This document shows, piece after piece, positions 876-57,097 of a DNA stretch of 64,000 nucleotides. A model generated the notes under the pieces. That model had not been told where the DNA came from and did no database searches. It saw only the letters and a program-made list of their open reading frames with translations. How positions within the stretch are numbered: the first letter of the stretch is position 1; each line of letters opens with the position of its first letter. The position numbers were made by a program, and so were the translations under genes. The DNA is from Chitinophagaceae bacterium (GTDB lineage: Bacteria > Bacteroidota > Bacteroidia > Chitinophagales > Chitinophagaceae), in NCBI GenBank assembly GCA_004173235.1, contig SEAC01000020.1, forward strand, positions 84,678-148,677. The letters are read 5' to 3'.

Positions 876-973
876 GTTTTCGGTTTTCGGTTTATAGTTT
901 TCGATTAAATCACAGAGAATAAGTGCAGGTGTGGTTTTCCTAACTGTAAACTCAAAGCTGTAAACTCTAAACT
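876..973. repeat. Imperfect heptamer-periodic inverted repeat upstream of thiolase
   Basis: Left arm GTTTTCG GTTTTCG GTTTATA GTTTTCG; right arm TAACTG TAAACTC AAAGCTG TAAACTC TAAACT. Confidence 0.65.
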
Positions 974-980
974 TTCTTCC

Positions 981-2174
981 ATGCGTCCCGTATACGTCAT
1001 CGACTGCCTCAGAACCCCCATTGGCCGCTACGGAGGCGCGCTTTCTTCGGTGCGCCCCGACGACCTGCTGGCCCATACCATAAAAGCTTTGTTGGCCCGC
1101 AACCCGGGCGTGGACCCCGAGGCGATCGAAGATGTGATTGCAGGAGATGCGAACCAGGCGGGTGAAGACAACCGCAACGTGGCCCGCATGGCAGCGCTGC
1201 TGGCGGGATTGCCCCCAACCGTCCCCGGCAACACCGTAAACCGCCTTTGCGCTTCGGGCCTCCAGGCCATCATGGATGGCGCGCGCCAGGTAATGACCGG
1301 CGATGCAGAGCTCATCATCGCCTGCGGCGTGGAAAGCATGAGCCGCGCGCCCTTCGTAATGGCGAAGTCGACGAGCCCGTTTCAGCGCACTGCCGAAGTG
1401 GCGGACACGACGCTCGGCTGGCGTTTCGTCAACAGCAGGTTGTCTGAAATGCATTACCCCTACAGCATGGGTGAAACCGGCGAGAACGTGGCGAAGCAAT
1501 GGAGCATTTCGCGGGAAGCGCAGGACCAGTGGGCGCTGCGCTCTCAGGAGAATTATTTCGCTGCCCTCGAGGCAGGCAAGTGGGCCGATGAAGTGATTCC
1601 CGTAGAAATACAGGAAGGCAAGGAGCGGAAGATGGTAGACACCGACGAGCATCCGCGCCGTACATCACTTGAAAAACTCGCTTCGCTGAAGCCGGCGTTT
1701 GTAAAAGACGGCACCGTAACCGCTGGTAATGCCGCCGGCCTCAACGATGGTGCGGCGGCGATGCTGCTTGCTTCGGAAGAAGCCGTGCAGAAGTATGGCC
1801 TGAAGCCGATCGCGAAGGTGCTTTCGATGGCTGTTGCAGGTGTTGATCCATCCATCATGGGCATCGGCCCGGTGCCTGCTACACAGAAGGCACTGAAGCG
1901 CGCCGCTCTTTCCATTGCCAACATCGGGCTGGCCGAGCTCAACGAAGCCTTTGCCGCGCAGGTGCTGGCTTCCATCCACGACCTGCAGCTGGATCCGCAA
2001 AAGGTGAACGTCAATGGCGGCTCCATCGCCCTGGGCCATCCGCTTGGTTGCTCGGGCGTGCGCATTTCCACCACGCTGCTCCACGAAATGAAACGCCGCG
2101 GCGAAAAGTACGGCCTTGCCACCATGTGCGTTGGTGTGGGCCAAGGCGCGGCGGTCATCTACGAAAGCGTTTAG
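981..2174 (+). CDS. Acetyl-CoA C-acyltransferase (thiolase, PcaF/PaaJ-like)
   Basis: Thiolase motifs NRLCASG, NEAFAAQ, GHPLGCSG, CVGVGQG; 397 aa. Confidence 0.93.
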   Translation: MRPVYVIDCLRTPIGRYGGALSSVRPDDLLAHTIKALLARNPGVDPEAIEDVIAGDANQAGEDNRNVARMAALLAGLPPTVPGNTVNRLCASGLQAIMDGARQVMTGDAELIIACGVESMSRAPFVMAKSTSPFQRTAEVADTTLGWRFVNSRLSEMHYPYSMGETGENVAKQWSISREAQDQWALRSQENYFAALEAGKWADEVIPVEIQEGKERKMVDTDEHPRRTSLEKLASLKPAFVKDGTVTAGNAAGLNDGAAAMLLASEEAVQKYGLKPIAKVLSMAVAGVDPSIMGIGPVPATQKALKRAALSIANIGLAELNEAFAAQVLASIHDLQLDPQKVNVNGGSIALGHPLGCSGVRISTTLLHEMKRRGEKYGLATMCVGVGQGAAVIYESV

Positions 2175-2177
2175 CGA

Positions 2178-2205
2178 AAGTTGGAAGCAGGAAGTGGGAA
2201 GCCGG
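2178..2205. repeat. Heptamer tandem repeat (AAGYNGG x4) after the thiolase stop
   Basis: AAGTTGG AAGCAGG AAGTGGG AAGCCGG. Confidence 0.6.
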
Positions 2206-2232
2206 GTCTGGTTCTTGCCTAATTTTCCGATT

Positions 2233-2676
2233 ATGAAACGCTTCGCTCCCTGTTTTTTGTTCCTGCTTTTTGCCTGCAATCCCTACAAGGCCATGCGTTC
2301 CGCATCGGCGGATTTTACTTCGGCGCAAGGGCCGGCGGGCTTGTCGTTCCTGGTGCCTAAAGGCTGGAAGGGCGTGCGCAACGAAACCGACAGTGCGGGC
2401 AGGGCCGTCAGGTTTTTCGAGTATGCCGGCGGCACCGTTTTTTACGTGGCCTATGCACCCAAGGGCGGCGACATTCAGCCCATCCCGCGCGACAGCCACG
2501 TGCCCAGGCTGATGCGCACCGGCGACACGCTCTACAAGGAGCAGTCCTCGCGTACGGGCCGCGTGTGGCGTGAAGACAAGAAGGGCGCGCTTCGTGCCGG
2601 TTACATCAATGTGAGCGAAGGCAAATCGGAAGCGCTTTTCGATTCGGCGGTGAATTCAGTGCGGGCAATACGGTAA
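2233..2676 (+). CDS. Hypothetical lipoprotein
   Basis: MKRFAPCFLFLLFAC lipobox-like signal; start moved to ATG 2233 within ORF 2116..2676. Confidence 0.7.
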   Translation: MKRFAPCFLFLLFACNPYKAMRSASADFTSAQGPAGLSFLVPKGWKGVRNETDSAGRAVRFFEYAGGTVFYVAYAPKGGDIQPIPRDSHVPRLMRTGDTLYKEQSSRTGRVWREDKKGALRAGYINVSEGKSEALFDSAVNSVRAIR

Positions 2677-2801
2677 GAGAAAGAACGCAGATGCCCCCTT
2701 CGGGGTCTCGCAGATGATTAAGATTGTTATGATTTGCTGACGCACAAAAAAACCTTATCCGCGCAAATCATAAAAATCATAAAGGATCCGCGTTCTTTCT
2801 C
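2677..2801. repeat. Nonamer-periodic inverted repeat between convergent genes
   Basis: Outer arms GAGAAAGAACGCAGAT (2677-2692) and ATCCGCGTTCTTTCTC (2786-2801), 15/16 complementary; inner arms TTATGATTTGC (2727-2737) and GCAAATCATAA (2763-2773), perfect. Confidence 0.85.
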
Positions 2802-4210: not shown

Positions 4211-4214
4211 AATC

Positions 4215-4301
4215 AATTCAAAATTCAAAAGTAAAAAACTGGTTCTTCGTCAAATGCTGCATAGCAAGCGCTTTTGACTTTTTAATTTTGACTTTTGACT
4301 T
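4215..4301. repeat. AAAGTCA/TTTTGAC heptamer inverted-repeat element
   Basis: AATTCAAAATTCAAAAGTAAAA ... TTTTGACTTTTTAATTTTGACTTTTGACTT; right arm encodes the phosphatase C-terminus and stop. Confidence 0.9.
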
Positions 4302-4755
4302 CTCCGTATCTATTAATGACCGCACTACATGCGGCTTCTATCAAGGAGTACACATCATGGTACCCGGGCTCTTCTCCGTACCAGGGGTCGGGAACGTCTT
4401 CGTTCTTGCCCGGGTGCAGCTCGTTGAGCAGGAGGTCGACCTTGCCTGCGTTCCAGTGCCGCCCGGCGATGCGCTTCATATCCACCACCACGTCGTTGGC
4501 CATGGCGTAGATCTTATCATAGCGATGCAGGTCTTCGGCCACAAATCGGCGTGCGCGCTGCCGGCAGATGTCGACGCCATTGTGCTGCGCCACTTTCTGC
4601 GACAACCGGTGCGGCGCTTCGCCCACGTGGTAGCCGTTGGTGCCCGCGCTTTCCACCGTCCACTGCAGACCCTCCGCATCTGCCTTGTGCTGCAAAATGC
4701 CTTCCGCAAGCGGGCTGCGACAGATGTTGCCGAGGCATACCATCAGGATTTTCAT
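4282..4755 (-). CDS. Low molecular weight protein-tyrosine-phosphatase
   Basis: MKILMVCLGNICRSPLAEG P-loop and DVPDPWYG motif; ATG at 4755. Confidence 0.95.
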   Translation of the reverse strand: MKILMVCLGNICRSPLAEGILQHKADAEGLQWTVESAGTNGYHVGEAPHRLSQKVAQHNGVDICRQRARRFVAEDLHRYDKIYAMANDVVVDMKRIAGRHWNAGKVDLLLNELHPGKNEDVPDPWYGEEPGYHDVYSLIEAACSAVINRYGEVKSQN

Positions 4756-4761
4756 CGGGCG

Positions 4762-4769: not shown

Positions 4770-4810
4770 ATGGGGGAATGGGGTAATAAGGGAACTGCAT
4801 GATGTGACTT

Positions 4811-4842
4811 CCCTTCCCTTAGGGAAGGGGCAGGGGATGGGT
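4811..4842. repeat. REP-like hairpin of the family flanking DUF559 at 38.4-39.0 kb
   Basis: CCCTTCCC-TTA-GGGAAGGG-GCAGGGGATGGG has the same layout as CCCCTCTCC-TTT-GGAGAGGGG-CCGGGGGTAAGG. Confidence 0.65.
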
Positions 4843-4909
4843 CTGGCTAATGGGGTAATGGGGTATGGAATTGGATTCGCCGCCGCATCTCTTTACAAAA
4901 CCAAACGCC

Positions 4910-8815: not shown

Positions 8816-9226
8816 ATGTTCCATTTGCTTCAAGCCGACATTACCCGCGCTGTGCAAGACGTGCAAGGCGCTGGCAGCTACCTTCCCGTAGCGCTTCAGT
8901 TCCTGTTTGCATTCGGGATGATTGGTACCCTCATGGGCGTTACCCACCTGCTGGGCCCCAAGCGCAAGACTGCCGACAAGCTCGAAAACTTCGCCTCGGG
9001 CATCGAAAGCCATGGAGCTGCGCGTCAGCCGATGGCGATCAAGTATTTCCTGGTGGCCATTCTTTTCGTTTTGTTTGACGTGGAAGTGATCTTTTTCTAT
9101 CCCTACGCGGTTAATTTCCGTGGATTGGGCTGGGATGGGTTTGTGGCTGTGGTGATGTTCGTAGCCTTTTTCCTGTGCGGGTTCATCTACTGCGTGAAGA
9201 AAGGTGCGCTCAAATGGGAAGACTGA
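8816..9226 (+). CDS. nuoA: NADH-quinone oxidoreductase subunit A
   Basis: FASGIE, KYFLVAILFVLFDVEVIFFYP, KKGALKWE; start ATG 8816 preferred (ORF begins 8795). Confidence 0.95.
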   Translation: MFHLLQADITRAVQDVQGAGSYLPVALQFLFAFGMIGTLMGVTHLLGPKRKTADKLENFASGIESHGAARQPMAIKYFLVAILFVLFDVEVIFFYPYAVNFRGLGWDGFVAVVMFVAFFLCGFIYCVKKGALKWED

Positions 9227-9340
9227 ATTAAAAAGTCAAAATTCGAAAGTCAAAAAGCGGAGCCATCCCAGTTCCGCACTGTTTTTGACCTCGTTAACGC
9301 GTAACAATTTTGACTTTTGACTTTTAAATTTTGAATTATT
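9227..9340. repeat. AAAGTCA/TTTTGAC heptamer inverted-repeat element (nuoA-nuoB)
   Basis: AAAAGTCAAAATTCGAAAGTCAAAAA ... TTTTGACTTTTGACTTTTAAATTTTGAATT. Confidence 0.9.
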
Positions 9341-9925
9341 ATGGCACGTCCCGTATCGTTCAACATACACGAAAAACCGCTGGAGAGAGACATCTCGGTG
9401 GCTGAAATGCCTGATGGCTTCCAGGGGGAAGGATTCTTTGCCCAAAAGCTGAGCGAGGCCGTGGGCCTCGCGCGCAAGAATTCCATCTGGCCGCTCCCTT
9501 TTGCCACTTCCTGCTGCGGTATTGAATTCATGGCCACGATGGCCTCCCACTACGACCTTGCCCGCTTCGGCGCCGAACGCCTCGGCTTTTCGCCGCGCCA
9601 GTGCGACCTGCTGATGGTGATGGGCACCATCTCGAAGAAAATGGCACCGGTGGTGCGCCAGGTATACCTGCAGATGGCTGAGCCCCGATGGGTGATGGCC
9701 GTGGGTGCCTGCGCCTGCTCCGGCGGTGTGTTCGACTCGTACAGCGTGCTCCAGGGCATCGACCAGGTGGTGCCTGTAGACGTGTATGTGCCCGGCTGCC
9801 CGCCGCGCCCCGAGGCCATCATCGACGGCATCCTGCGCATCCAGGACCTTGTGGGCAAGGAAAGCCTGCGCCGCCGCAACAGCGATCATTATAAAACGCT
9901 CCTCGAGAGCTACGGTATACAATAA
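9341..9925 (+). CDS. nuoB: NADH-quinone oxidoreductase subunit B
   Basis: WPLPFATSCCGIE, SPRQCD, GACACSGG, YVPGCPPRPE. Confidence 0.97.
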   Translation: MARPVSFNIHEKPLERDISVAEMPDGFQGEGFFAQKLSEAVGLARKNSIWPLPFATSCCGIEFMATMASHYDLARFGAERLGFSPRQCDLLMVMGTISKKMAPVVRQVYLQMAEPRWVMAVGACACSGGVFDSYSVLQGIDQVVPVDVYVPGCPPRPEAIIDGILRIQDLVGKESLRRRNSDHYKTLLESYGIQ

Positions 9926-10663: not shown

Positions 10664-10691
10664 ATTCACGATTCACGATTCACGATTCACG
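10664..10691 (+). repeat. Perfect heptamer tandem repeat (ATTCACG)4
   Basis: Four exact copies ending 6 nt before the nuoD ATG. Confidence 0.95.
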
Positions 10692-10697
10692 ATAACA

Positions 10698-11933
10698 ATG
10701 GCCACAACAAATCCGCATTCCCACATCCCGCTTCCGGAAGGAGCGCTTGAGAAGGAAACGACGACCATCAACCTCGGCCCCACGCACCCGGCCACGCACG
10801 GCGTGTTCCAGAACATCGTGGAGCTCGATGGCGAAACCGTGGTGTCGGCCGAGCAGACCATCGGCTATATCCACCGGGCCTTCGAAAAGATCGCCGAGCG
10901 CCGCCCGCTTTACCAGATCACGCCGCTGACCGACCGCCTCAACTACTGCTCGGCGCCCATCAACAACATGGGCTGGCATATGACCTGCGAAAAGCTTCTG
11001 GGCATCCAAACGCCGAAGCGCGTAGATTATCTCCGCGTGATCATCATGGAACTGGCCCGCATCGCCGATCACATCATCTGCAACTCCGTGATCGGGGTAG
11101 ACACCGGCGCTTTCACCGGCTTCCTCTACGTGATGCAGTACCGCGAACTCATCTACGAGATCTGGGAAGAAGTGTGCGGCTCGCGCCTCACCACCAACAT
11201 CGGCCGCATCGGTGGCTTCGAGCGCGACTTCAACAACATCGCTTTTACCAAGCTGGAAAAATTCCTTGCCGAATTCCCCGACGTACTGCGGGAGTTCGAT
11301 AGCCTCTTCACGCGCAACCGCATTTTCATGGACCGCACCATCGGCGCGGGCCCCATTGGAGCGGAGCGCGCCCTCAACTACGGCTTCACCGGTCCCAACC
11401 TGCGTGCAGCGGGTGTGGATTACGATGTGCGCGTGCATTCGCCCTACTGCTCTTACCAGGACTTCGAGTTCAGCATTCCCACCGGCACCACCGGCGACTG
11501 CTACGACCGCTTCCTGGTGCGCAACGGCGAAATGTGGGAGTCGATCTCCATCGTGCGCCAGGCCTACCAGAAGCTCCAGGACATAAAGGGCGCGGATGCA
11601 TCGGTGTACCACGCCGACGTGCCCGAGTATTACCTCCCCGACAAGAAAGATGTGTACACGAAGATGGAAGCGCTGATCTACCACTTCAAGATCGTCATGG
11701 GCGAGGTTAATATACCGCCGGGCGAAGTATACCACAGCGTGGAAGGCGCCAACGGCGAGCTGGGCTTCTACCTCATCTCCGATGGTGGCCGCAGCCCGTA
11801 CCGCCTGCACTTCCGCCGTCCCTGCTTCGTATACTACCAGGCCTACGAAGAACTGGTAAAAGGGGGCATGTTGTCCGACGCCATCATCACGATGTCGTCG
11901 CTCAACCTGATCGCCGGCGAAATGGATGGGTAA
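10698..11933 (+). CDS. nuoD: NADH-quinone oxidoreductase subunit D
   Basis: NLGPTHPATHG, GYIHRAFEK, DRLNY, EGANGELGFY, IAGEMD. Confidence 0.97.
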   Translation: MATTNPHSHIPLPEGALEKETTTINLGPTHPATHGVFQNIVELDGETVVSAEQTIGYIHRAFEKIAERRPLYQITPLTDRLNYCSAPINNMGWHMTCEKLLGIQTPKRVDYLRVIIMELARIADHIICNSVIGVDTGAFTGFLYVMQYRELIYEIWEEVCGSRLTTNIGRIGGFERDFNNIAFTKLEKFLAEFPDVLREFDSLFTRNRIFMDRTIGAGPIGAERALNYGFTGPNLRAAGVDYDVRVHSPYCSYQDFEFSIPTGTTGDCYDRFLVRNGEMWESISIVRQAYQKLQDIKGADASVYHADVPEYYLPDKKDVYTKMEALIYHFKIVMGEVNIPPGEVYHSVEGANGELGFYLISDGGRSPYRLHFRRPCFVYYQAYEELVKGGMLSDAIITMSSLNLIAGEMDG

Positions 11934-12044
11934 AGACGCACCATGTGCGTCTCTGTGTGAGATGTAAAGACGCACCATGTGCGTCTCCGATAGCGTAAAG
12001 ACGCACCATGTGCGTCTCCAGTAAAGACGCACTATGTGCGTCTC
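11930..12044 (+). repeat. Four tandem 24-bp GTAG-type REP palindromes
   Basis: GTAAAGACGCACCATGTGCGTCTC at 11930, 11964, 11995 and 12021 (last has one substitution); spacers 10, 7 and 2 nt. Confidence 0.95.
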
Positions 12045-12059
12045 CTAAAACGAACGACA

Positions 12060-12557
12060 ATGACCTTTTCAGAAGACAAACTCAATAAAGTACGCGAGAT
12101 CGTGGCGCGCTACCCCGAAGGGAAGCAGAAGAGCGCCCTCATCCCCGTGCTGCACCTGGCACAGGAAGCCAACAATGGCTGGCTGTCGTCGGACGCGATG
12201 GATTACGTGGCTTCGCTGCTCGACCTGAAGCCGATCGAAGTGTACGAGGTGGCGACCTTCTACAGCATGTTCAACCTGAAGCCGATCGGCAAGTACCTGT
12301 TTGAGGTGTGCCAGACCGGCCCCTGCATGGTGAACGGCTCCGACGATATCATCGCCTACATCAAGCAGAAGCTGGATATCGGCGTGGGTGAAACCACTAC
12401 CGACGGCATGTTCACGCTGAAGACCGTTGAGTGCCTTGGCGCCTGCGGTTATGCGCCCATGATGCAGCTGGGCAAATTTTACAAAGAGCACCTCACTCCT
12501 GAAAAGGTGGATGCGATCATTGACGAATGCCGTAGAAATGCGGTTGCTAATAATTAA
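12060..12557 (+). CDS. nuoE: NADH-quinone oxidoreductase subunit E
   Basis: VATFYSMF, VCQTGPC, ECLGACGYAPMM 2Fe-2S motifs; ATG 12060. Confidence 0.96.
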   Translation: MTFSEDKLNKVREIVARYPEGKQKSALIPVLHLAQEANNGWLSSDAMDYVASLLDLKPIEVYEVATFYSMFNLKPIGKYLFEVCQTGPCMVNGSDDIIAYIKQKLDIGVGETTTDGMFTLKTVECLGACGYAPMMQLGKFYKEHLTPEKVDAIIDECRRNAVANN

Positions 12558-12643
12558 AAAGTCAAAATTCGAAAGTAAAAACGCTCATGCGATACCAACA
12601 GCGTAGAACCGGTTTTTGACTTTTGAATTTTGAATTTTGACTT
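12556..12643. repeat. AAAGTCA/TTTTGAC heptamer inverted-repeat element (nuoE-nuoF)
   Basis: AAAAAGTCAAAATTCGAAAGTAAAA ... TTTTTGACTTTTGAATTTTGAATTTTGACTT. Confidence 0.9.
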
Positions 12644-12650
12644 GTACACC

Positions 12651-14003
12651 ATGGGTAGAAAATTATTACTCGAACACGAACACGTAGAAGGCATCCGCTA
12701 CTACGAAACCTACCGCCGCAACGGTGGTTATGCCGCCGTGGAGAAGGCCTTCAAAATGGGCCCTGCCGACATCGTGGAAGAAGTGAAGAAGAGCGGCCTC
12801 CGTGGCCGTGGTGGCGCCGGCTTCCCTACCGGTATGAAGTGGAGCTTCCTTGCCAAGCCCGAGGGCGTTCCGCGCTACCTCGTTTGCAACGCCGACGAAT
12901 CGGAGCCCGGTACCTTCAAGGACCGCTACCTGATGGAGTTCCTCCCGCACCTGCTGATCGAGGGGCTCATCATTTCTTCGTTTGCGCTGGGCTCCAACCG
13001 CACCTATATCTATATCCGCGGCGAATATGCCTGGATCGTAGATATACTGGAGCAGGCTATTGCCGAAGCCAACCAGGCGGGCTTCCTCGGAAAGAACATT
13101 CTCGGCTCGGGCTTCGACTGCCAGATCTATGTGCAGCGCGGCGCGGGTGCCTATATCTGCGGTGAAGAAACCGCGCTCCTCGAATCGCTCGAAGGCAAGC
13201 GCGGCAACCCACGCATCAAGCCGCCCTTCCCCGCTATCAAGGGACTCTACGACTGCCCCACCGTGGTCAACAACGTGGAGACGCTCGCAGCGGTGGTGCC
13301 CATCATCAACATCGGTGGTGAGGAGTATGCGAAGATCGGCGTGGGCAAATCAACCGGTACCAAGCTCATCTCGGCCTGCGGCAACATCAACAAGCCCGGC
13401 ATCTACGAGATCGACATGACCATCTCGGTAGAAGAATTCATATACGGCGAGGAATACTGCGGCGGCATCCCCAAAGGCAAGCGCCTGAAGGCTTGCATTC
13501 CTGGTGGTTCTTCGGTTCCCATCCTGCCTGCCAACCTCCTGCTCAAAACGGCAAAAGGCGAGCAGCGGATGATGACCTACGAAAGCCTCGCCGATGGCGG
13601 CTTCCCCACGGGTTCGATGATGGGCTCGGGTGGATTCATCGTGCTGGATGAAGACCAGTGCGTGGTGCGCCACACTTATTCGCTGGCACGCTTCTACCGC
13701 CACGAAAGCTGCGGCCAGTGTTCGCCCTGCCGCGAAGGCACGGGCTGGATGGAAAAGATCCTGCACAAGATCGAGCACGGTAAAGGCGATATGCGCGATA
13801 TCGACCTGCTGTGGGATATCCAGAGCAAGATCGAAGGCAACACCATCTGCCCCCTGGGTGATGCGGCTGCCTGGCCGGTGGCTGCGGCCATCCGCCACTT
13901 CCGCGACGAATTTGAATGGCACGTGCTGAACCCCGAGGAAAGCCAGAAGCGCAACTTCGGGCTGGCGCATTATGCGGATCCGATTTCGGTTGCCGTAGGA
14001 TAA
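12651..14003 (+). CDS. nuoF: NADH-quinone oxidoreductase subunit F
   Basis: GLRGRGGAGFPTG, NADESEPGTFKD, GAYICGEETAL, ESCGQCSPCREG; ATG 12651. Confidence 0.97.
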   Translation: MGRKLLLEHEHVEGIRYYETYRRNGGYAAVEKAFKMGPADIVEEVKKSGLRGRGGAGFPTGMKWSFLAKPEGVPRYLVCNADESEPGTFKDRYLMEFLPHLLIEGLIISSFALGSNRTYIYIRGEYAWIVDILEQAIAEANQAGFLGKNILGSGFDCQIYVQRGAGAYICGEETALLESLEGKRGNPRIKPPFPAIKGLYDCPTVVNNVETLAAVVPIINIGGEEYAKIGVGKSTGTKLISACGNINKPGIYEIDMTISVEEFIYGEEYCGGIPKGKRLKACIPGGSSVPILPANLLLKTAKGEQRMMTYESLADGGFPTGSMMGSGGFIVLDEDQCVVRHTYSLARFYRHESCGQCSPCREGTGWMEKILHKIEHGKGDMRDIDLLWDIQSKIEGNTICPLGDAAAWPVAAAIRHFRDEFEWHVLNPEESQKRNFGLAHYADPISVAVG

Positions 14004-14007
14004 ATAG

Positions 14008-14351
14008 AAAGTCAAAATTCAAAAGTCAAAAGGCCTCGCTGTTCGCACAGTTTTATAGGTTTGAGACTTCTAAATTTTGACCGGATGGAGTTTGAAGATC
14101 TTTTTTTATTGGAAGACGGCGAGAAGCGATCGCTTTGAAGTCGGCCAATGAAACGAAATATTGGATTTGCCTGATCCGTGAAACGATGGATTTGGACAAA
14201 CGAAAACTAAATGAGTTGCTCCAGGAAGCCAACGAGCTTTCGAAGATAATCGCCAGTATTATCACAAGTGAGTGATTCGAATTGAGTACGCTGGCCAACG
14301 AGCGGAGTCTACGACCTGCTTTTTGACTTTTGACTTTTGAATTTTGACTTT
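14008..14351. mobile_element. Heptamer inverted-repeat element enclosing a four-helix-bundle gene remnant
   Basis: Left arm AAAGTCAAAATTCAAAAGTCAAAA (14008-14031) is perfectly complementary to 24 nt of the right arm (14321-14351); the interior is AT-rich. Confidence 0.7.
14096..14275 (+). pseudogene. 3' fragment of a four helix bundle protein gene (TIGR02436 / 23S rRNA IVP-like)
   Basis: Manual translation ...IALKSANETKYWICLIRETMDLDKRKLNELLQEANELSKIIASIITSE* fits the A-x-E-T-x-Y-W ... E-L-x-x-I-I C-terminal half; in-frame TGA at 14093-14095 and no start that includes the ETKYW motif. Confidence 0.75.
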
Positions 14352-14353
14352 AT

Positions 14354-15544
14354 ATGTCAGAAGAGAAGAAACTTTTTAAGGTAACGATCGACAACATCAC
14401 GGTGGAAGTCGAGCAGGGCACTACGATCCTCATGGCCGCCCGCAAGATTGGTGGCGATATAGTGCCGCCCACGATGTGCTACTACAGCAAGCTCGATAAG
14501 ACAGGTGGTTATTGCCGCACCTGCCTCGTGCGCGTGGCTGCAGGCTCTACCGCCGACCCGCGCCCGATGCCCAAGCTCGTGGCCTCCTGCCGCACGCAGG
14601 TGATGGACGGAATGATCGTGGAAAACATCACCAACCCCACGGTGCTCGAAGCACGCAAGGGCGTTGTTGAATTCCTGCTGCTCAACCACCCGCTCGACTG
14701 CCCCGTGTGCGACCAGGCCGGTGAGTGCGACCTGCAGGATCTTTCGTACCAGCACGGTAAGGAGGGCACCCGCTACGAGTTTAAGCGCCGCACCTTCGAG
14801 CGTATCGACCTCGGGCCTTATATCCAGCTGCACATGACGCGCTGCATTCTTTGCTACCGCTGCGTGCACACCGCCAACCAGGTGGCCGGCGGCCGCGAGC
14901 ACGGCGTGCTGGATCGGGGCGACCACGCGCAGATCGCAACCTATATACAGAAGTCGCTTGATAACGAAATGATCGGCAACGTCATCGACGTTTGTCCGGT
15001 AGGCGCGCTTACCGACCGCACGTTCCGCTTCAAGAACCGCGTGTGGTTTACCAAGCCGGTGGACGCGCACCGCGATTGCACCCATTGCAAGGGTGAAGTG
15101 CGCCTGTGGATGCGCGGCGACGACGTGCTGCGCGTTACCGCCCGCAAAGATCAGTGGGGTGAAGTGGGTAACAACTCCGATGGCAGCACGGGCTGGATCT
15201 GCAACGAATGCCGCTTCGAGAAGAAGCAGGTGAGCGACTGGACCATCGAAGGTCCTACGCGCGTAGACCGCCACTCGGTGATCAATGCGGGACACTACAC
15301 GAACACGGTAGTGCCGAAAGAAACCTTCCAGGATGTGATGAAGGGCCGCGATCCGAAATTGCTGATGGACATCCACAGCGTTTCCGATGTAAATACAGTG
15401 GACCTCAACGTGCTTCCCGGACCGGCAACCAGCGCCACCTTCAACGGCCACCCGCAGGCCAGCGGCGTCAACGTTACCGATGTGAAGGAAGGCGTGGGAA
15501 GAAACAAAATGGGAACGGATTCGACGAATGCCAATACTCCGTGA
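14354..15544 (+). CDS. nuoG: NADH-quinone oxidoreductase subunit G (short, Fe-S domain only)
   Basis: CYY...CRTCLV, HPLDCPVCDQAGECDLQ, CILCYRCV, CPVGALT. Confidence 0.95.
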   Translation: MSEEKKLFKVTIDNITVEVEQGTTILMAARKIGGDIVPPTMCYYSKLDKTGGYCRTCLVRVAAGSTADPRPMPKLVASCRTQVMDGMIVENITNPTVLEARKGVVEFLLLNHPLDCPVCDQAGECDLQDLSYQHGKEGTRYEFKRRTFERIDLGPYIQLHMTRCILCYRCVHTANQVAGGREHGVLDRGDHAQIATYIQKSLDNEMIGNVIDVCPVGALTDRTFRFKNRVWFTKPVDAHRDCTHCKGEVRLWMRGDDVLRVTARKDQWGEVGNNSDGSTGWICNECRFEKKQVSDWTIEGPTRVDRHSVINAGHYTNTVVPKETFQDVMKGRDPKLLMDIHSVSDVNTVDLNVLPGPATSATFNGHPQASGVNVTDVKEGVGRNKMGTDSTNANTP

Positions 15545-15610
15545 ACCGTGAGCCTGGAACCGTGAGCGCCATCCGGCTACCTGCTCACGGCTGACGGCTG
15601 ACGCTTCACG
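15541..15610. repeat. GTGARCC/GCTSACG heptamer inverted-repeat element (nuoG-nuoH)
   Basis: GTGAACC GTGAGCC TGGAACC GTGAGC ... GCTCACG GCTGACG GCTGACG CTTCACG; contains the nuoG stop. Confidence 0.85.
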
Positions 15611-15652
15611 AAACGATATCATCACGGGGCGCAGCTCCACACTGAAGCAACT

Positions 15653-17911: not shown

Positions 17912-18241
17912 ATGGATATCCGATACTACATTTTTCTCTCCATCGCGCTGTTCGTCACCGGCATCATCGGTGTGCTCACGCGTCGCAATGCCATCGTCAT
18001 CTTCATGTGCATTGAGCTGATGCTGAATGCTGTGAATCTGCTGCTGGTGGCTTTTTCGAAGATGCACTATAAGGCGCTCGCCGCCACGAACCCTACGGCG
18101 GGCACCGACGGACAACTGTTCGTGTTCTTCATCATGGTGGTTGCCGCAGCTGAAGTAAGCGTCGGCCTGGCTATCATCGTGATGCTATACCGCAACACGC
18201 GCTCGGTAGATATTAACTTTCTGAATCGTCTTAAACATTAA
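17912..18241 (+). CDS. nuoK: NADH-quinone oxidoreductase subunit K
   Basis: [32 protein letters not shown]. Confidence 0.96.
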
Positions 18242-18313
18242 TTCAAAAGGCGAAAGTCAAAATTCAAAAACCGGTTCGTTGCAAACGCTTTTGACTTTTG
18301 ACTTTTGAATTTT
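18241..18313. repeat. AAAGTCA/TTTTGAC heptamer inverted-repeat element (nuoK-nuoL)
   Basis: ATTCAAAAGGCGAAAGTCAAAATTCAAAAA ... TTTTGACTTTTGACTTTTGAATTTT. Confidence 0.9.
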
Positions 18314-18321
18314 CCTTCGTC

Positions 18322-23155: not shown

Positions 23156-23286
23156 AGCGGAAGTCGGAAGCAAACGTTCGACGTTGCCACTTACAAAAAT
23201 TACTATTTGCCCCGCAGCGGAGCGGGGCTTTTTCTTGTCCAAGCGGTAATGCAAAACTTCCCACTTCCAACTTCCCAACTTAACTT
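23155..23286. repeat. GAAGYNG/ACTTCC heptamer inverted-repeat arms flanking the nuo terminator
   Basis: AAGCGG AAGTCGG AAGCAAA ... AACTTCC CACTTCC AACTTCC CAACTT. Confidence 0.7.
23209..23233 (+). terminator. Rho-independent terminator of the nuo operon
   Basis: GCCCCGC-AGCGGA-GCGGGGC-TTTTT. Confidence 0.8.
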
Positions 23287-23295
23287 ACAGGCGTC

Positions 23296-27769: not shown

Positions 27770-27793
27770 GTAGAGACGCACCATGTGCGTCTC
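27770..27793 (+). repeat. GTAG-type REP followed by a T tract (probable exbBD-tonB terminator)
   Basis: GTAGAGACGCACCATGTGCGTCTC then TTTTTTTT; same unit as the 11930 array. Confidence 0.9.
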
Positions 27794-38358: not shown

Positions 38359-38978
38359 GACCTCGCCCCCGGCCCCTCTCCCAGGAGAGGGGTGCCTCTG
38401 CGGGACATTTTTTTCTGTCTTCTAACTGCCTTTCTTTGAGAAAAACACCGCCTGAATGTGGTGAAAAACACATGGTTCAGTCACTTGAAGTTGGGTTCTT
38501 TAGTGCATGAAAAGGCCGATCAGGAAACACTATGAATTATCCCATCCAGCCATCTACAAGTTTGTTTTCCCTTTCGCAAAAGAAAATCGCAAGTCACCCA
38601 CTGCAGCTGAAGCGAAGCTTTGGAAACACATCAAAAATCGCCAGATAGACGGTTTCAAGTTTCGACGGCAGCATGTTGTTGATCGTTACATACCCGATTT
38701 CATTTGTATCGATGTGCGATTGATTGTGGAGGTTGATGGCAGCATTCATGAAGAAGAGGAACAACGCAAATATGATCTGGAGCGCACGTCCGATCTGGAA
38801 GCACTGGGTTTTAAATTAATCCGATTCACCAACGAACAAGTTCTGGAACATACACGTGTTGTATTGGACGAAATACGAAGGGCGCTTCATGAATGTGCAA
38901 CCAACATGCAGCAACAAACTAATTAGTCTGTACAACTGAGGCACCCCTCTCCTTTGGAGAGGGGCCGGGGGTAAGGTC
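38359..38978. mobile_element. DUF559 gene bracketed by ~40-bp inverted REP-like repeats
   Basis: Left GACCTCGCCCCCGGCCCCTCTCCCAGGAGAGGGGTGCCTC (38359-38398); right arm 38938-38978 has reverse complement GACCTTACCCCCGGCCCCTCTCCAAAGGAGAGGGGTGCCTC. Confidence 0.7.
38507..38926 (+). CDS. DUF559 (Vsr-like) endonuclease domain protein
   Basis: RKSPTAAEAKLW, GFKFRRQH, YIPDFIC, VEVDGSIH, IRFTNEQV; AT-richer than the flanks. Confidence 0.9.
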   Translation: MKRPIRKHYELSHPAIYKFVFPFAKENRKSPTAAEAKLWKHIKNRQIDGFKFRRQHVVDRYIPDFICIDVRLIVEVDGSIHEEEEQRKYDLERTSDLEALGFKLIRFTNEQVLEHTRVVLDEIRRALHECATNMQQQTN

Positions 38979-40462: not shown

Positions 40463-40639
40463 GCGCACGGAATACACGGAAACCCGAAGGTGGACGATCA
40501 ATGGGGGGCTGCGTGCCCGGTTACGATCAAGGCATCACTTTACGTGTATCGTACCGCGTTCTCGTTCCGAATAGGCGCGCAGCCTCCGTCAATACAAAGA
40601 GTGTATTTTCTTTCCGTGTATTCCGTGATTTCCGTGCGC
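40463..40639. repeat. Nonamer-periodic inverted repeat
   Basis: CACGGAATACACGGAAA (40466-40482) perfectly complementary to TTTCCGTGTATTCCGTG (40611-40627); extra TTTCCGTGCGC unit on the right. Confidence 0.88.
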
Positions 40640-41869: not shown

Positions 41870-42030
41870 CAACTGCAAACTGGAAAACGGCAAGCGCAAA
41901 CTGCAAACTGGAAACTGGAAAAACGCAAAACGCAAACTACAAACTGCAAACCAAAAACGCAAACCGCAAACTGGAAAACCGCAAACTGCAAACCGAAAAC
42001 TGCAAACTACAAACCACAAACTTCAAACTC
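41870..42030 (+). repeat. Long degenerate heptamer array (CAAACTG-like, about 23 units)
   Basis: CAAACTG GAAAACG ... CAAACTA CAAACCA CAAACTT CAAACTC, ending next to the helicase stop. Confidence 0.92.
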
Positions 42031-42035
42031 CCCCC

Positions 42036-46993: not shown

Positions 46994-47891
46994 CGGCGCC
47001 CATCACGCAGCTGCGGTGCGGGCTGCAGGAAGCATGTGGGATGCTCCATCGGGTGGCGTCATTCCGGTGCGCAGCACTGGGATCTAAAGGGGGGTGATGC
47101 TACAACGCGCAGCGGGGACATCAACGAGGGTGTTGCACTACGCGCAGCACCGGGATCTAAAGGAGGGTGATGCATTTTGCCAGGGGGAATGCCGGCCAGG
47201 GGCTTTCGTTCTATGCGTCCGCGGCGTCCCCGCGCGCATGCGTCGCCCTCATTCCCTTCGCGCATGCCTCTCCGTCATTCCCCGGCGCATGCGCGGCGCA
47301 TAGATCCCGGCGGCAAGCGCCGGGATGACGGCGCTGCGCGGGGCGCAAAGGGGCCCCATGACAGCAGTATCCTCTGTTCCGGGCATCCGGGTGATGGGGC
47401 CCCGTAAGTGCAGGATTTCCTCATTCCTGCGTCCAAGCCGCGAATGTTCCCCCGCGTGTGCGCGGCCATCATTCCCCCGGCGCATCCGCGGCGCATAGAT
47501 CCCGGCGGCAAGCGCCGGGATGACGGCCCTGCGCGGGGCGCAAAGGGGCCCCATGTCAGCAGTATCCTTTGTTCCGGGCATCCGGGCGATGGGGCCCCTT
47601 AGGTGCAGGACTTCCTCGTTCCTGCGTGCGAGTCGCGACTGTTCCCCTGAGTGTGCGGCGCCCTCATTCCCCCCGCGCATACGCGGCGCGTAGATCCCGG
47701 CGGCAAGCGCCGGGATGACGGCCCTGCGCGGGGCGCAAAGGGGCCCCATGGCAGCAGACCCCTCTGTTCCGGGCATCCGGGTGATGGGGCCCCGTAAGTG
47801 CAGGATTTCCTCGCGGAATACTGGGAATAATCCCATGAACTGCTGGCCAAATGCACAGTGCGGGCGACAATGTGGGTTGCACCTTAGATGG

Positions 47892-48233
47892 ATGAAAGGC
47901 GGATACACGTACATACTCACCAACTACCGGCGCACGGTCCTTTACGTCGGCGTCACCAGCGATCTGCGCCGCAGGTTGCGCGAGCACCGGGAACAACTTC
48001 ATCCTGGTTCTTTCACGGCGCGCTACCAGTGCTTCTACCTTGTCTACTTCGAACAGGTGCCCGGTATTGTTGCCGCTATCCAAAGGGAAAAGCAATTGAA
48101 AGAATGGCCCCGCCAACGCAAGCTGGAACTAATCCGCACCGTCAACCCGCACCTGTATTTCTACCACCCACACACCTTACTGCTCTCCGATACCCGAAAC
48201 CCCTTGTGCAGCCGCGGTGTATGCTGCCGTTAA
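47892..48233 (+). CDS. GIY-YIG nuclease family protein
   Basis: MKGGYTYILTN...LYVGVTSDLRRRLREH...FTARY...LVYFE...AIQREKQLK; ATG 47892. Confidence 0.92.
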   Translation: MKGGYTYILTNYRRTVLYVGVTSDLRRRLREHREQLHPGSFTARYQCFYLVYFEQVPGIVAAIQREKQLKEWPRQRKLELIRTVNPHLYFYHPHTLLLSDTRNPLCSRGVCCR

Positions 48234-48488
48234 ATGTGGTGGATGCTACATCGGGGGGCCTTCCTTTATAAAAAAAGGGGAGCCGTCATCCCGGCGCTTG
48301 CCGCCGGGATCTAAAGAGGATGAAGCCAGGATGCGCAGCGCCGGGATCTAATGGGGATGATGCACTCCGCGCCGCGCCGGGATGACGGGCGTCGCAGGAA
48401 CGCATCGGGCCCCATGACAGCATCTCCCTCTGTCCCGGCATCCGGGCGATGGGGCCCCGTTAGTGCAGGACCTCCTCGCGGAATACTA

Positions 48489-48950
48489 CGCGCAGCGCCG
48501 GGATCGAATGCTGATAATGCACTCCGCGCAACACGGGGATCTAAAGTGGAGGATGCAGTAAGCGCAACACCGGGATCTAAAGGGGAGGATACACTCCGCG
48601 CAGCACCGGGATGTAATGGGGCGTTGCATTGCGCGCAGTCGTTGGAGGTATGCAAAGGGGTACTTTCATACTGTCCATTGCGATTGTTCCCCCAACGCAG
48701 TCGCCGGTAGATCCCGGCGGCAAGCGCCGGGATGACGGCGCTGCGCGGGGCGCAAAGGGGCCCCATGACAGCATCTCCCTCTGTCCCAGCATCCGGGCGA
48801 TGGGGCCCCGTTAGTGCAGGACCTCCTCGCGGAATACTACGCGCAGCGCCGGGATCGAATGCTGATGATGCACTCCGCGCAACACCGGGATCAAAAGGGG
48901 AGGATGCAGTAAGCGCAACACCGGGATCTAAAGGGGAGGAAGTCTTGGCG
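48489..48950 (+). repeat. Two runs of degenerate 36-bp tandem repeats (further units at 47068-47175 and 48330-48380)
   Basis: CGCGCARCRCCGGGATCTAAAGGGGAGGATGCACTC-like units at 48489, 48525, 48561, 48597 and 48840, 48876, 48912. Confidence 0.85.
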
Positions 48951-49364
48951 CAGCGCCCGAGGAACAATGAAAGAGTTTCCATTGCCAGGCTTGTGCGGAC
49001 GCTACTGCCGGATCATGTGGTGGATGCTACATCGGGGGCCTTCCTTTAAAAAAAAAAGGGGAGCCGTCATCCCGGCGCTGCCGCCGGGATCTAAAGAGGA
49101 TGAAGCCAGGATGCGCAGCACCAGATGGAACCAAACAAAAAGCCGCCCCTCGCGGAACGGCCCTTCTATAGAGACCAAGATCTTTATCCCTTGCAGCTTT
49201 GAAGTACACTGCGGAAGCACTAAAAATAACGTTCGCGAGCCAACGGTGCGGGCCCAGGGGAACGAAAGCTGCTTTTGTGGGACGCAATGTTCCTGCACAG
49301 TGCGGCCACGGCACCCCGCGTGCTGCGTATGGCCCTGCGGTAATTTGCAGTCTCAAAGAAACCT

Positions 49365-54020: not shown

Positions 54021-54070
54021 GGGCGTTTGTTAAGGGAGCTATCTAAACCGACTAAATTACAGAGAAATCG

Positions 54071-54634: not shown

Positions 54635-54689
54635 GCATTCGTTTAACGGAAAATCAGATATTTGCCCTATCCTTTAAACACCCAATGCG

Positions 54690-54884: not shown

Positions 54885-54899
54885 AATTGTTTCCCGGGA

Positions 54900-55091: not shown

Positions 55092-55186
55092 AAAAGCCCT
55101 CTTTGCCAATAGCGGGCCGGAAAATGGGAAATGGAAGCGAAATCGTTACGCCTTTGGTAAAGCCTGCATAGAAGGCGTTGCCCGCA

Positions 55187-55444: not shown

Positions 55445-55575
55445 CTACAGGCGACCCAGCAACGAGTGTACCGATAGGCTAAGGGGCAGGCAAAATAAAA
55501 ATTTCCTGCACGTGCGAACAGATGAGCCCGCAACTTTTAATCTCCTCTTAATTTCACAGCGCGGCCGCAGGTGAC

Positions 55576-55604
55576 AAAAAAAAGGCCCCGAAAAAACGGG
55601 GCCT
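55576..55604 (-). terminator. Rho-independent terminator after the tRNA
   Basis: Minus strand AGGCCCCG-TTTTTT-CGGGGCCT-TTTTTTT. Confidence 0.85.
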
Positions 55605-55610
55605 GTTTCG

Positions 55611-55683
55611 AGCCAACTATCAGATTCGAACTGACGACCTATTCATTACGAATGAATCGCTCTACCAGCTGAGCTAAGTTGGC
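55611..55683 (-). tRNA. tRNA-Thr (anticodon CGT)
   Basis: GCCAACT TA GCTC AGCTGGTA GAGC G ATTCA TTCGTAA TGAAT AGGTC GTCAG TTCGAAT CTGAT AGTTGGC T cloverleaf; CCA not encoded. Confidence 0.96.
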
Positions 55684-55692
55684 GTGGGAGTG

Positions 55693-55700
55693 CAAATGTA
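55693..55700 (-). promoter_or_regulatory. -7 element (TACATTTG) for tRNA-Thr
   Basis: Exact TAnnTTTG match 9 nt upstream of the tRNA 5' end. Confidence 0.7.
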
Positions 55701-55809
55701 GGGAGTTTGACCAATTTTCCAAATGCATCCGGGGCACGTGCCGATCAACCAATGTGCTCCACCTGAGAAACCACTTCAAACCTTCCCTAATCGGTATCTT
55801 AGCGCCGCA

Positions 55810-56973
55810 ATGGGATTGGCTGCCGTTTTGTTCTGGCTCCTGCTCGCAGGCGTGTTTTTTGCCTACGTGGGCTATCCCGTGCTGCTCCTCGCCCTCGATC
55901 TGTTTCGCCGCCAACGCACGGCGCCTGCATCATCCACCTGGCCCTCGGTAACGCTGGTGGTTGCGGCTTACAACGAAGCAGCGATCCTGCCCGGGAAGGT
56001 CCGGAACGCCCTTGCCCTCGACTACCCCGGCGAGCTGCGCCTGCTGCTGGTGACCGATGGCTCTACCGACAACAGCGGCGAAGGAGTTGCCGCATTTCCC
56101 GGCGTGCAGGTGCTGCATCAACCCGAACGGCGCGGCAAGACGGCGGCGCTCAACCGGGCGGTGGCATTCGCCGATACTGAGCTGCTCGTTTTCAGCGATG
56201 CCAATACGAGCCTGCCTCCCGATGCGCTGCGTAAACTGCTCCGCCATTTCAATGATCCTGGCGTGGGTGCCGTGGCAGGCGAGAAGCGCGTGCAGCACAG
56301 CTCCGGGATGGGCTTTGCCGAAGGCTGGTACTGGCACTACGAATCGTTCCTGAAAAAGCTGGACGCGCGTTTTTACAGCGTGGTGGGCGCGGCCGGCGAG
56401 CTCTTCGCTTTGCGGCGTCCGTTATTTACGGTCCTGCCCGACGACACGGTGCTCGACGACCTGGCGCTCTCGCTCGAGATCGGCATGCAGGGGAAGCGGA
56501 TCGCGTATGAGCCCGAAGCGTTTGCGCTGGAGGCGCCTTCCGCGTCGCTGGACGACGAGCGGCGTCGTAAGGTGCGGATCGCTGCCGGCGCGTTTCAGTT
56601 GCTCGATCGCCTTTCGTGGGCAAAGCTGTTGCAGCAACCGGCGCTTGCCTTCCAGTTCTTCGTACGGCGCTGGCTTCGCTGGGCTTTTTGTCCGCCCGCG
56701 CTGCCCCTGCTCCTCCTGCTCAACCTGCTGCTCGCAATCGGGCATCCCGCTGCACTGTACGACCTGTTGCTTGCCCTGCAGGGAACCGTATATCTACTGG
56801 CCGGCGCCGGTGCGCTGCTGCTGCGCCGCAACCGCGCATTTTTCCTGTGCACGGTGCCGTTTTATTTCCTCTTTATGAACGCATGCCTGCTCGAAGGCTG
56901 GTGGCGTCATCGAAAGGGCGGGCAGTCGGTGTTGTGGGAGAAGGCGAGGAGGGGGAGAGAGGTAAAGGGTTAA
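55810..56973 (+). CDS. Glycosyltransferase family 2 protein
   Basis: VAAYNE, DGSTD, GKTAALN, FSDAN, GAAGELFALR, LDD, RRKVRIAAG; ATG 55810. Confidence 0.92.
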   Translation: MGLAAVLFWLLLAGVFFAYVGYPVLLLALDLFRRQRTAPASSTWPSVTLVVAAYNEAAILPGKVRNALALDYPGELRLLLVTDGSTDNSGEGVAAFPGVQVLHQPERRGKTAALNRAVAFADTELLVFSDANTSLPPDALRKLLRHFNDPGVGAVAGEKRVQHSSGMGFAEGWYWHYESFLKKLDARFYSVVGAAGELFALRRPLFTVLPDDTVLDDLALSLEIGMQGKRIAYEPEAFALEAPSASLDDERRRKVRIAAGAFQLLDRLSWAKLLQQPALAFQFFVRRWLRWAFCPPALPLLLLLNLLLAIGHPAALYDLLLALQGTVYLLAGAGALLLRRNRAFFLCTVPFYFLFMNACLLEGWWRHRKGGQSVLWEKARRGREVKG

Positions 56974-57097
56974 AGAGTTAAAGAGTTAAAGAGTTAAGGG
57001 GTTAATAGGTTACAGAGTTGGGTACTGCCCACTTTTCAACCCGTCCACTATTCAACTTTCCAACTCCTCAACCTTCCAACTCCTCAACTTCTAACCC
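56961..57097. repeat. Octamer-periodic inverted-repeat element
   Basis: GTTAAAGA x3 plus variants (56961-57020) ... TCCTCAAC/TTTCCAAC units (57033-57097); contains the GT2 stop. Confidence 0.88.

Follow-up and report, generated by a model that had tools for sequence, protein, structure and literature searches.

Why do several small genes in one bacterial genome each sit inside an inverted repeat of their own, and why do repeats of the same kinds also occur without any gene? The question was raised by a 64,000-nucleotide stretch of DNA (hereafter the window, with positions counted from its first letter) from an uncultured member of the Chitinophagaceae. It is contig C14:84678-148677 of assembly G000 (3.76 Mb in 41 contigs, 57% GC, 92% complete), and its best-matching sequencing run is a phyllosphere metagenome. 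Three small genes of the window, namely a remnant of a four-helix-bundle (4HB) gene of the TIGR02436 family, a stand-alone DUF559 gene and a GIY-YIG nuclease gene, were found to be bracketed each by its own inverted repeat, as the initial annotation had proposed. With surveys of 30 relatives in the genus and of 81 Bacteroidota genomes, it was determined that the link of gene family to arm style is solid, and the co-variation of 4HB proteins with the repeat units of their arms likewise. These partnerships resemble those of repetitive extragenic palindromes (REPs), their inverted doublets (REPINs) and the REP-associated tyrosine transposases (RAYTs). Our reading is that 4HB, GxxExxY, DUF559 and GIY-YIG genes form four REPIN-RAYT-type partnerships in addition to a classical REP-RAYT pair, and we give this reading, including its proposed working, a probability of about 0.5.

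Small gene families and the style of their arms

Genes were identified by Pfam and NCBIfam profile searches. The gene-bearing elements of the window are as follows.

14004–14355, unstranded: heptamer-armed 4HB element in the nuoF-nuoG gap, arms 14004–14032 and 14327–14355
14126–14269, + strand: remnant of a TIGR02436 4HB gene, C-terminal half (32 bits, model positions 59–107)
38359–38978, unstranded: DUF559 element, arms 38359–38407 and 38929–38978
38507–38926, + strand: stand-alone DUF559 gene with a Vsr-like endonuclease fold, 139 aa (PF04480, E = 3.8e-36)
47691–48313, unstranded: GIY-YIG element, perfect 32-nt inverted arms 47691–47722 and 48282–48313
47892–48233, + strand: single-domain GIY-YIG nuclease gene, 113 aa (PF01541, E = 6.7e-14; in the frame of the open reading frame 47715–48233)

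The arms differ in style among the three elements. Those of the 4HB element are 29 nt each, 97% complementary and built of AAAGTCA/AAATTCA units, and the element fills its gap, beginning 1 nt past the stop of nuoF and ending 1 nt short of the ATG of nuoG, with the remnant lying sense to the nuo genes. Each DUF559 arm is a C-run/G-run self-hairpin (CCCCTCTCC..GGAGAGGGG) with a further G/C run; the arm core lies at 38359–38381 and 38956–38978, and a 42-nt version of the inverted repeat was also detected. The DUF559 protein matches the PDB entry 3hrl, an 'endonuclease-like protein' (1.7e-24). The GIY-YIG arms are CGTC-tagged palindromes (TAGATCCCGGCGGCAAGCGCCGGGATGACGGC), and their 32-mer is repeated on 6 other contigs, mainly at contig ends. 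Profile searches of the GIY-YIG protein found no second domain, and among PDB structures it showed weak similarity to UPF0213 and SLX1.

We sought to assess whether such arms accompany the gene families beyond the window. The genome holds 9 TIGR02436 loci, 4 DUF559 genes, 5 GxxExxY genes and, for GIY-YIG, 3 loci of the small stand-alone type and 4 beside tRNA fragments. All nine TIGR02436 loci are flanked by inverted tandem 7-8-mer arms, with a different unit at each; if the genes had been placed in proportion to family size, nine genes in nine unit families would have P = 0.0024. The family is present in 30 of the 31 genomes of the genus, at up to 18 copies each, and in 62 of the 81 Bacteroidota genomes. 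Under a strict gapless test for periodic inverted repeats flanking a locus, 43 of 67 4HB loci in the genus and 25 of 40 sampled across Bacteroidota (in about 17 families) carried such arms, versus 4 of 1000 random segments used as a control. Chance is thus excluded as the origin of the repeats.

The other families have arms of their own style. Inverted, quasi-periodic arms of 8-10-nt units of the CRCRRAR type (CGCAAAG, CACGGAA, CACATAG) were found at 15 of 25 GxxExxY loci, and C-run/G-run hairpin arms at approximately 13 of 22 stand-alone DUF559 genes. Inverted palindromes with a (C/T)GTCAT tag, as judged by eye, flank 12-13 of the 13 small GIY-YIG loci of the genus that do not adjoin tRNAs. 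The expectation of a cognate arm for each gene family therefore stood in part: arm style is family-specific in the genome and in its congeners, but the 4HB genes have no one common arm. For 4HB, 'one arm family per gene family' was accordingly rejected, as the unit differs with each gene.

Within the 4HB family, the arm unit follows the protein. Across 43 well-defined loci, arm similarity correlates with protein identity (Mantel r = 0.33; 0 of 2000 permutations reached this value). When pairs with non-homologous outer flanks were compared, the best shared 12-mer of the arms matched at 7.1 of 12 bases below 30% protein identity, 9.9 at 60-70% and 10.9 above 70%; in the 15 pairs at least 60% identical, 10-11 bases matched, compared to the background of 7.1. 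Two paralogs at different sites of one genome (G004_C26_3724 and G004_C45_3938, 81% identical) have GGTTTGT units in common, and the related proteins of contigs C32 and C33 have units one base apart (TCGTGAA and TGGTGAA; the arm variants are TCGTCAA and TGGTCAA, respectively), the C33 copy being frameshifted.

A leader upstream of the DUF559 gene is shared by several of these families.

38436–38509, + strand: shared upstream leader, GAGAAAAACACC..GGTGAAAAACACATGG.. ~24 nt ..CTTTAGTGC ATG (nhmmer E = 1.1e-9)

Its 75-nt form reads (A)TGGGAAAAAnnCC..N..TTTTTCCCATGG, ~24 nt, GCTTTG, 3-8 nt, ATG. Further copies lie in G000 at C12:120369-120443, C30:23004-23078, C22:59921-59996, C11:654-728 and approximately 25 more places, and the leader was found 5' of 4HB, DUF559, GxxExxY and GIY-YIG genes and of two IS200/RAYT-like genes. 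We considered it as a component of the elements and rejected this, as it also precedes two histidine kinases, a ComEA-like gene and a PepE-like gene. It looks like a palindromic regulator site upstream of the Bacteroidota -7 box, with a regulon that appears enriched in selfish small genes. At gathering thresholds, Rfam found tRNA alone in the whole window; the leader and the hairpins are therefore not a described RNA family.

It was noted that a second GIY-YIG subfamily (KVYILWS.., YYLYIIYS..) always adjoins a tRNA gene, with a duplicated 3' part of the tRNA on the far side. Its loci in G000 are C12:36350-36547, C16:87071-87289, C10:141207-141371 (with two in-frame stops) and C38:7-156, and relatives occur in L193, L195, L200, L201, L202 and L208. 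From this arrangement, the subfamily looks like a cassette inserted into tRNA genes.

Gene-less hairpins and a classical REP-RAYT pair

A census of the whole genome for inverted repeats with arms of at least 18 nt and loops of at most 1000 nt gave 240 loci, of which at least 123 have periodic arms (period 7, 99; period 8, 18; period 9, 5). The periodic hairpins fall into about 13 unit families, with loops mainly of 20-110 nt. Every unit family that belongs to a 4HB gene has gene-less members too, among them 18 for AAAGTCA, 11 for CTGATGT and 7 each for AGTTTAC and AATCGTG. The genome-wide scan bore out the proposal that repeats of the same arm types exist without genes, and it showed tens of such copies. 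In all 98 gene-less hairpins scored, the order of the arms is constant within the family (for example, always CGTGAGC..GCTCACG). This fixed order reads the same on both strands and therefore points to template copying or oriented recognition, rather than to independent origin. Unit variants within arms were often noted to be G or C at one position of a GT[G/C]A core (CGTGAGC/CGTCAGC, TCGTGAA/TCGTCAA, GGTGAAT/GGTCAAT), and the 5' arm has at least as many G as C in 12 of 13 families.

The initial annotation had placed the elements right after stop codons, and this was upheld genome-wide: by gene calls that are crude, the hairpins start at a median of 4-10 nt past the preceding stop codon, and the following start codon lies 41-63 nt away. 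They lie between convergent genes in 33% of cases (versus 21% of all gaps), between co-directional genes in 52% and between divergent genes in 15%.

The gene-less repeats of the window, with fold strength where given as the z-score of the RNA fold relative to shuffled sequence, are listed below; all are unstranded.

4215–4310: gene-less AAAGTCA-family hairpin (repeat search)
9219–9346: gene-less AAAGTCA-family hairpin (repeat search; spanned by the RNA contig 9089–9625)
9924–10014: gene-less AAAGTCA-family hairpin (repeat search)
12545–12645: gene-less AAAGTCA-family hairpin in the nuoE-nuoF gap, with no counterpart in the same gap of congeners
18240–18315: gene-less AAAGTCA-family hairpin (z = -4.2 for 18236–18316)
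4806–4850: orphan C-run/G-run hairpin, CCCTTCCCTTAGGGAAGGGG + GGGGATGGG, a member of the arm family found around the C30 copy of DUF559
47280–47690: two extra tandem 195-nt copies of the left end of the GIY-YIG element (repeat search)
48708–49119: gene-less GIY-YIG-type unit of left end, 36-nt tandem repeats and right end
2675–2803: gene-less GxxExxY-type hairpin (AGAAAGAACGC..; ATCATAA 9-mers) with an inner GC hairpin (z = -5.4 for 2670–2805)
40466–40627: gene-less inverted CACGGAAT(A) arms of GxxExxY type, matching an arm of the GxxExxY element at C12:104987
15540–15612: gene-less hairpin of the CGTGAGC/CGTCAGC heptamer family in the nuoG-nuoH gap (z = -5.9 for 15535–15615)
876–980: weak hairpin of the GTTTTCG/AGTTTAC heptamer family (z = -2.3 for 870–985)
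23158–23285: GGAAGT-type periodic arms around a terminator-like hairpin (GCCCCGC..GCGGGGC and a T run; z = -3.9 for 23150–23290)
56961–57097: long imperfect hairpin of 8-nt units (GTTAAAGA / TCAACTCC; weak, z = -2.0 for 56952–57100)
11930–12052: array of four classical REPs (GTAAAGACGCACCATGTGCGTCTC), with further copies at 27770–27793

All five AAAGTCA hairpins had been predicted as gene-less heptamer elements and were confirmed. The empty GIY-YIG element also held, its left and right ends being 94% and 87% identical to those of the gene-bearing unit. The hairpin at 4811 is real, but its arms match those of the DUF559 gene on C30 and not those of the window's own DUF559 gene. Similarly, the 9-mer repeats proposed at 2677 and 40463 exist and belong to GxxExxY genes elsewhere: the arm type of the former is that around the gene at C39:39405, with about 30 matches in the genome. 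Of the other periodic repeats, those at 2670–2805, 15535–15615 and 23150–23290 fold strongly, but 870–985 and 56952–57100 are weak; the unit family of the hairpin at 876 is that of the 4HB gene on C41.

The gene-less copies had been taken for non-autonomous derivatives of autonomous gene-bearing partners, and this was not sustained. Their loops are unrelated to the gene, and many are filled by inner, family-specific hairpins with A and T tracts, such as AAAACGGATCGC..GCGATCCGTTTT in 6 of the 11 CTGATGT copies and GGATGCC..GGCATCC in at least 7 of the 20 CGTGAGC copies; in the window, terminator-like inner hairpins are nested likewise in the copies at 23150 and 2670. They are therefore not deletion derivatives and look like arms wrapped around terminators. 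Miniature inverted-repeat transposable elements with a conserved interior were rejected genome-wide, as the loops differ, though some families share an inner terminator-like hairpin. As regards terminators proper (a GC hairpin and a T run after a stop), many inner hairpins have the A/T tracts, a terminator would not require the outer periodic arms, and RNA contigs cross two of the hairpins.

Transcript and DNA evidence from the sample came exclusively from assembled Logan contigs. Metatranscriptome contigs of the same sample cover 13883–14348 and 9089–9625, and some transcripts at least therefore read across hairpins. A read joint at 14033–14321, present in DNA and RNA contigs, was considered as excision and set aside as ambiguous, given that the arms are repeated and other family members could produce it. 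Mismatches within the arms, scored on the sense strand, were of the G-U type in 16 cases and of the A-C type in 19; selection at the RNA level is therefore unsupported.

The initial annotation had described the elements as transposase-free. This does not hold for the genome: a RAYT-like HUH gene at C3:7599-8147 is bracketed on both sides by the AGACGCA..TGCGTCT REP of the array at 11930–12052, with one AGAGACGCATATGATGCGTCTCT REP upstream and four downstream within C3:7480-8370. Its HUH motif, MPDHVHGILF, was recognized by eye, and it had no Pfam match at 0.01; a separate HUH gene on C36 matches PF01797 (5.1e-24). Together with the window REPs at 11930 and 27770, the C3 gene makes up a classical REPtron within this genome, an internal control with the same architecture.

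Two further arrays of the window were noted. At 41871–42031, approximately 23 heptamers (GCAAACT and variants) run in one direction with no local inverted partner, and the reverse complement of the array matches 63902–63931, about 22 kb away. At 10668–10695, four tandem GATTCAC heptamers stand alone immediately upstream of the ATG at 10698; they are the reverse-complement arm of AATCGTG-family hairpins, by itself a half-element.

Turnover of elements at the nuoF-nuoG gap

The nuo operon occupies 9-24 kb of the window, with hairpins in its gaps, and the four hairpin copies of the operon have a common GGTTCTTCG-like inner motif in either orientation. The gap that holds the 4HB element was compared in 81 Chitinophagaceae and allies. 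In most of these genomes (56) the gap is plain and measures 0-95 nt. In 8 genomes it contains a 4HB gene, either intact or in decay, between A-rich heptamer arms, with orthologous-looking copies in seven Chitinophagaceae besides the present one; a GxxExxY gene lies between CGCAAAG-type arms, in both arm orders, in 10; and empty hairpins of 4HB or GxxExxY type occur in 7. The cargo is sense to the nuo genes in every case.

On a tree of NuoF, the states of the gap require 22 changes, compared to 24.1 with shuffled labels, and, counting well-supported branches alone, 4HB must have changed state at least 4 times and GxxExxY at least 6 times. Close sisters are set apart by a whole element: where L119 has 8 nt (TAATTATG), L138 has a 493-nt element, and L186 and L190 have 18 nt versus 436 nt. 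The pattern of gain and loss at orthologous gaps is solid. Presence, arm type and cargo vary among relatives, so the hairpins are not ancient fixed terminators. The initial annotation had also suggested a comparison for target duplications, and none was visible between filled and empty sister sites; nor was any transposition event or catalytic activity seen.

In L114 (metagenome-assembled genome, JADKJI010000003.1), the gap contains a GxxExxY-type arm (TTTCACGCAAAGGAAAGCAAAG..) and, directly after it, a 4HB element in decay with AAAAGTC arms, so that one site carries a stack of two element types. The neighboring nuoE-nuoF gap, which holds a 72-nt hairpin in the window, measures 470-585 nt in the congeners L001, L003, L008 and L010 and contains unrelated small genes, one VOC/glyoxalase-like and the rest, by eye, SnoaL/DUF4440-like. 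The nuoE-nuoF gap, too, is a hot spot for small insertions.

Known systems, rival explanations and significance

Several published systems bear on these elements. In REPIN-RAYT systems (PMC3116915, PMC3733652), as here, the gene is present once and has copies of its own palindromic repeat on either side; gene-less inverted doublets are numerous near the ends of genes; one genome holds several families, each with its own gene; and inheritance is long and mainly vertical. In the present genome, the flanking inverted repeat is likewise dispersed without the gene, and there is one gene per repeat family (nine such for 4HB). The differences are that TIGR02436, DUF559, GIY-YIG and GxxExxY proteins are not HUH-Y1 (IS200-like) tyrosine transposases, that the arms are tandem 7-9-nt arrays or G/C-run hairpins instead of GTAG-tagged REPs, and that 4HB is without a nuclease fold.

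The 4HB family is also found in intervening sequences (IVSs) of 23S rRNA (Coxiella burnetii, Leptospira; PMC4990558). The Coxiella burnetii IVS has a 28-bp stem, tandem heptamers (GACAGAT), an S23p open reading frame and an RNase III cut in the stem, and in the structure of Xanthomonas S23p, four-helix bundles assemble into a homopentamer (PMC4990558). The 4HB protein of C32 matches that Xanthomonas entry, PDB 2gsc, of which five chains are deposited, at 1.6e-22. An S23p/PF05635-TIGR02436 gene in the loop of an approximately 28-bp stem, adjoining heptamers and an often decaying reading frame are shared with our elements. However, the window copies all lie between protein-coding cistrons and not in rRNA helices 25 or 45, and tens of gene-less copies with the same unit occur per genome.

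CGTC-tagged REPs were described as having no dedicated enzyme by Di Nocera et al. 2013 (PMC3733652). Chenal et al. 2025 then reported small GIY-YIG proteins (Ssn, cd10448) whose genes lie between such hairpins and which cleave these in single-stranded DNA form, and noted an insertion-sequence-like NTS-ssnA-NTS layout and co-evolution of the pair (PMC11893778). The window protein agrees in being a small single-domain GIY-YIG (113 aa; criterion ~90-150 aa) with (C/T)GTC-tagged hairpins on both sides that are also dispersed; it differs in the tandem amplification of the left end and in the gene-less unit next to the gene-bearing one. The GIY-YIG/CGTC-repeat pairing is thus essentially published as Ssn/SRM (PMC11893778) and is not new.

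For DUF559, the nearest parallel is the G/C-rich intrastrand triplex motifs BoxC/PIT/TM, which are intergenic and tied to variable loci, with no protein named and no link to mobile elements (PMC4666352). The DUF559 arms are similar in their order of C-block, loop, G-block, short loop and G-block, as in CCCCTCTCC TTT GGAGAGGGG CC GGGGGTAAGG, and the right arm in the window fits the pattern by eye. Our own three-block version of the pattern (C-block N3-6 G-block N3 G-block, each block being 7 nt or longer) matched 4 of 22 DUF559 loci, compared to 0 of 1000 random loci, so that most of the DUF559 arms are shorter hairpins of two blocks. Intergenic tandem heptamers of Bacteroidetes and Cyanobacteria (TAACTGA repeats and STRR, short tandemly repeated repetitive sequences) are strain-specific and lie near gene ends (PMC4679880); unlike the present repeats, they are direct arrays with a suggested translational role, one inverted repeat in the focal genome and no link to 4HB (PMC4679880). 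In the literature we searched, no link of TIGR02436, GxxExxY or DUF559 to these repeats was found.

Under the reading of four REPIN-RAYT-type partnerships, each encoded protein would recognize its own repeat by sequence, probably as a single strand or a hairpin, and the three nuclease folds would also cut it; GxxExxY is a PD-(D/E)XK protein and GIY-YIG an Ssn-like single-domain nuclease. A 4HB homopentamer would read 3-5 of the tandem 7-8-nt units of an arm. Gene and arms would be inherited mainly vertically, with occasional copying to new sites as a unit and frequent decay. Gene-less hairpins of the same unit would be made or maintained in trans and may persist as transcribed non-coding sites, often carrying or acting as terminators. 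Binding, cleavage and any role of the proteins in hairpin spread are what we infer.

Several observations weigh against this reading. We know of no catalytic fold for 4HB. The largest heptamer family, CGTGAGC with its 20 copies, is without a 4HB gene in this 92%-complete assembly, and the window DUF559 arms are unique in the genome in their exact form. The gene-less loops are unlike the gene-bearing ones, many with a conserved terminator-like hairpin of their own. We saw neither insertion nor excision events, and no target-site duplication or circular junction either. Across genera, the 4HB copies of the nuoF-nuoG gap have the look of orthologs, so that vertical descent with loss explains much of the patchiness, and co-variation by itself could reflect common descent of gene and arms. 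Finally, the published SRM pattern HGTCWYN(0-2)YYVSBRHN(0-5)WNVSBRGN(0-2)RNCYNB has 0 matches in the window and occurs at 1 of the 13 genus loci, and its 15 matches in the genome compare to 30 in a block-shuffled genome.

Three other explanations were weighed. The hairpins could be fast-evolving host terminators or signals for RNA stability or processing, with the small genes as independent homing cassettes that land in their safe loops; the landing sites alone would then tie genes to arms. The A-tract/GC-hairpin/T-tract terminators in many loops fit this, as do the placement just after stops, the enrichment in convergent gaps and the RNA contigs that cross hairpins, and a gap that accepts either 4HB or GxxExxY cargo, with both arm types in L114, is what safe landing sites would look like. 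Random landing, however, should put several genes into the large families, which nine genes in nine families do not show. Moreover, each gene family keeps to an arm style of its own, the similarity of units at unrelated sites can be predicted from that of the proteins, and the uniform arm polarity speaks for copying and not for independent origin. We consider the homing-cassette account unlikely.

Alternatively, the repeats may matter as double-stranded RNA: RNase III would cut the stem as in an IVS, freeing the small-gene mRNA and separating the cistrons, and 4HB would act on RNA. This draws on the Coxiella 23S IVS, with the same protein family, a long stem, tandem heptamers and an RNase III cut (PMC4990558), on elements within operons whose nuo-gap cargo is all sense to nuo, and on an element present in a metatranscriptome contig. 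On the other hand, arm mismatches show no excess of G-U-compatible over A-C pairs, about one-third of gene-less hairpins lie between convergent genes and others between divergent ones, and the relatives of the GIY-YIG protein act on single-stranded DNA (PMC11893778); an RNA-level origin is in our view doubtful. An account with no current mobility or partnership is the least probable of those considered: the elements would be ancient vertical insertions in decay, their units kept uniform by slippage and arm conversion, and the gene-arm link would be shared history. In its favor, several genera carry 4HB copies in the nuoF-nuoG gap that look orthologous and have A-rich heptamer arms, many of them decayed, and REPIN-RAYT systems are likewise reported to be mostly vertical (bioRxiv 10.1101/2022.05.22.493013). 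It is opposed by the tens of dispersed hairpins per genome with near-identical units in one polarity, by paralogous gene-and-arm units at different sites of one genome, by close sister genomes that differ by a whole element, and by gap labels nearly as scattered on the NuoF tree as shuffled ones.

A broader version of the partnership reading is put forward tentatively, as a possibility that we hold at less than even odds. In it, 4HB (S23p/Avd-like) pentamers would be programmable, sequence-specific readers of tandem 7-8-nt words, each paralog co-evolving with its word, as the C32 and C33 proteins may illustrate. They would belong to one superfamily with the nucleases of GxxExxY, DUF559 and Ssn type, made up of replicators that each combine a small protein with its own hairpin. 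Such a superfamily would account for the intervening sequences of rRNA as well as for the unexplained bacterial repeats of the intergenic heptamer, triplex-motif and CGTC-tagged kinds.

To our knowledge, TIGR02436, GxxExxY and stand-alone DUF559 are large families of 'hypothetical' small proteins without known function. Heptamer arrays, G/C-rich 'triplex' motifs and CGTC-tagged REPs are, in turn, abundant repeats that lack a known protein partner, save for Ssn in 2025 for the last. With all of these gene-repeat pairs and a REP-RAYT control in one genome, the general hypothesis is directly testable. If each protein does recognize its own repeat, these families would supply compact binders of specific nucleic-acid sequences, or nucleases for single strands, and this would also explain how intervening sequences reach rRNA genes.

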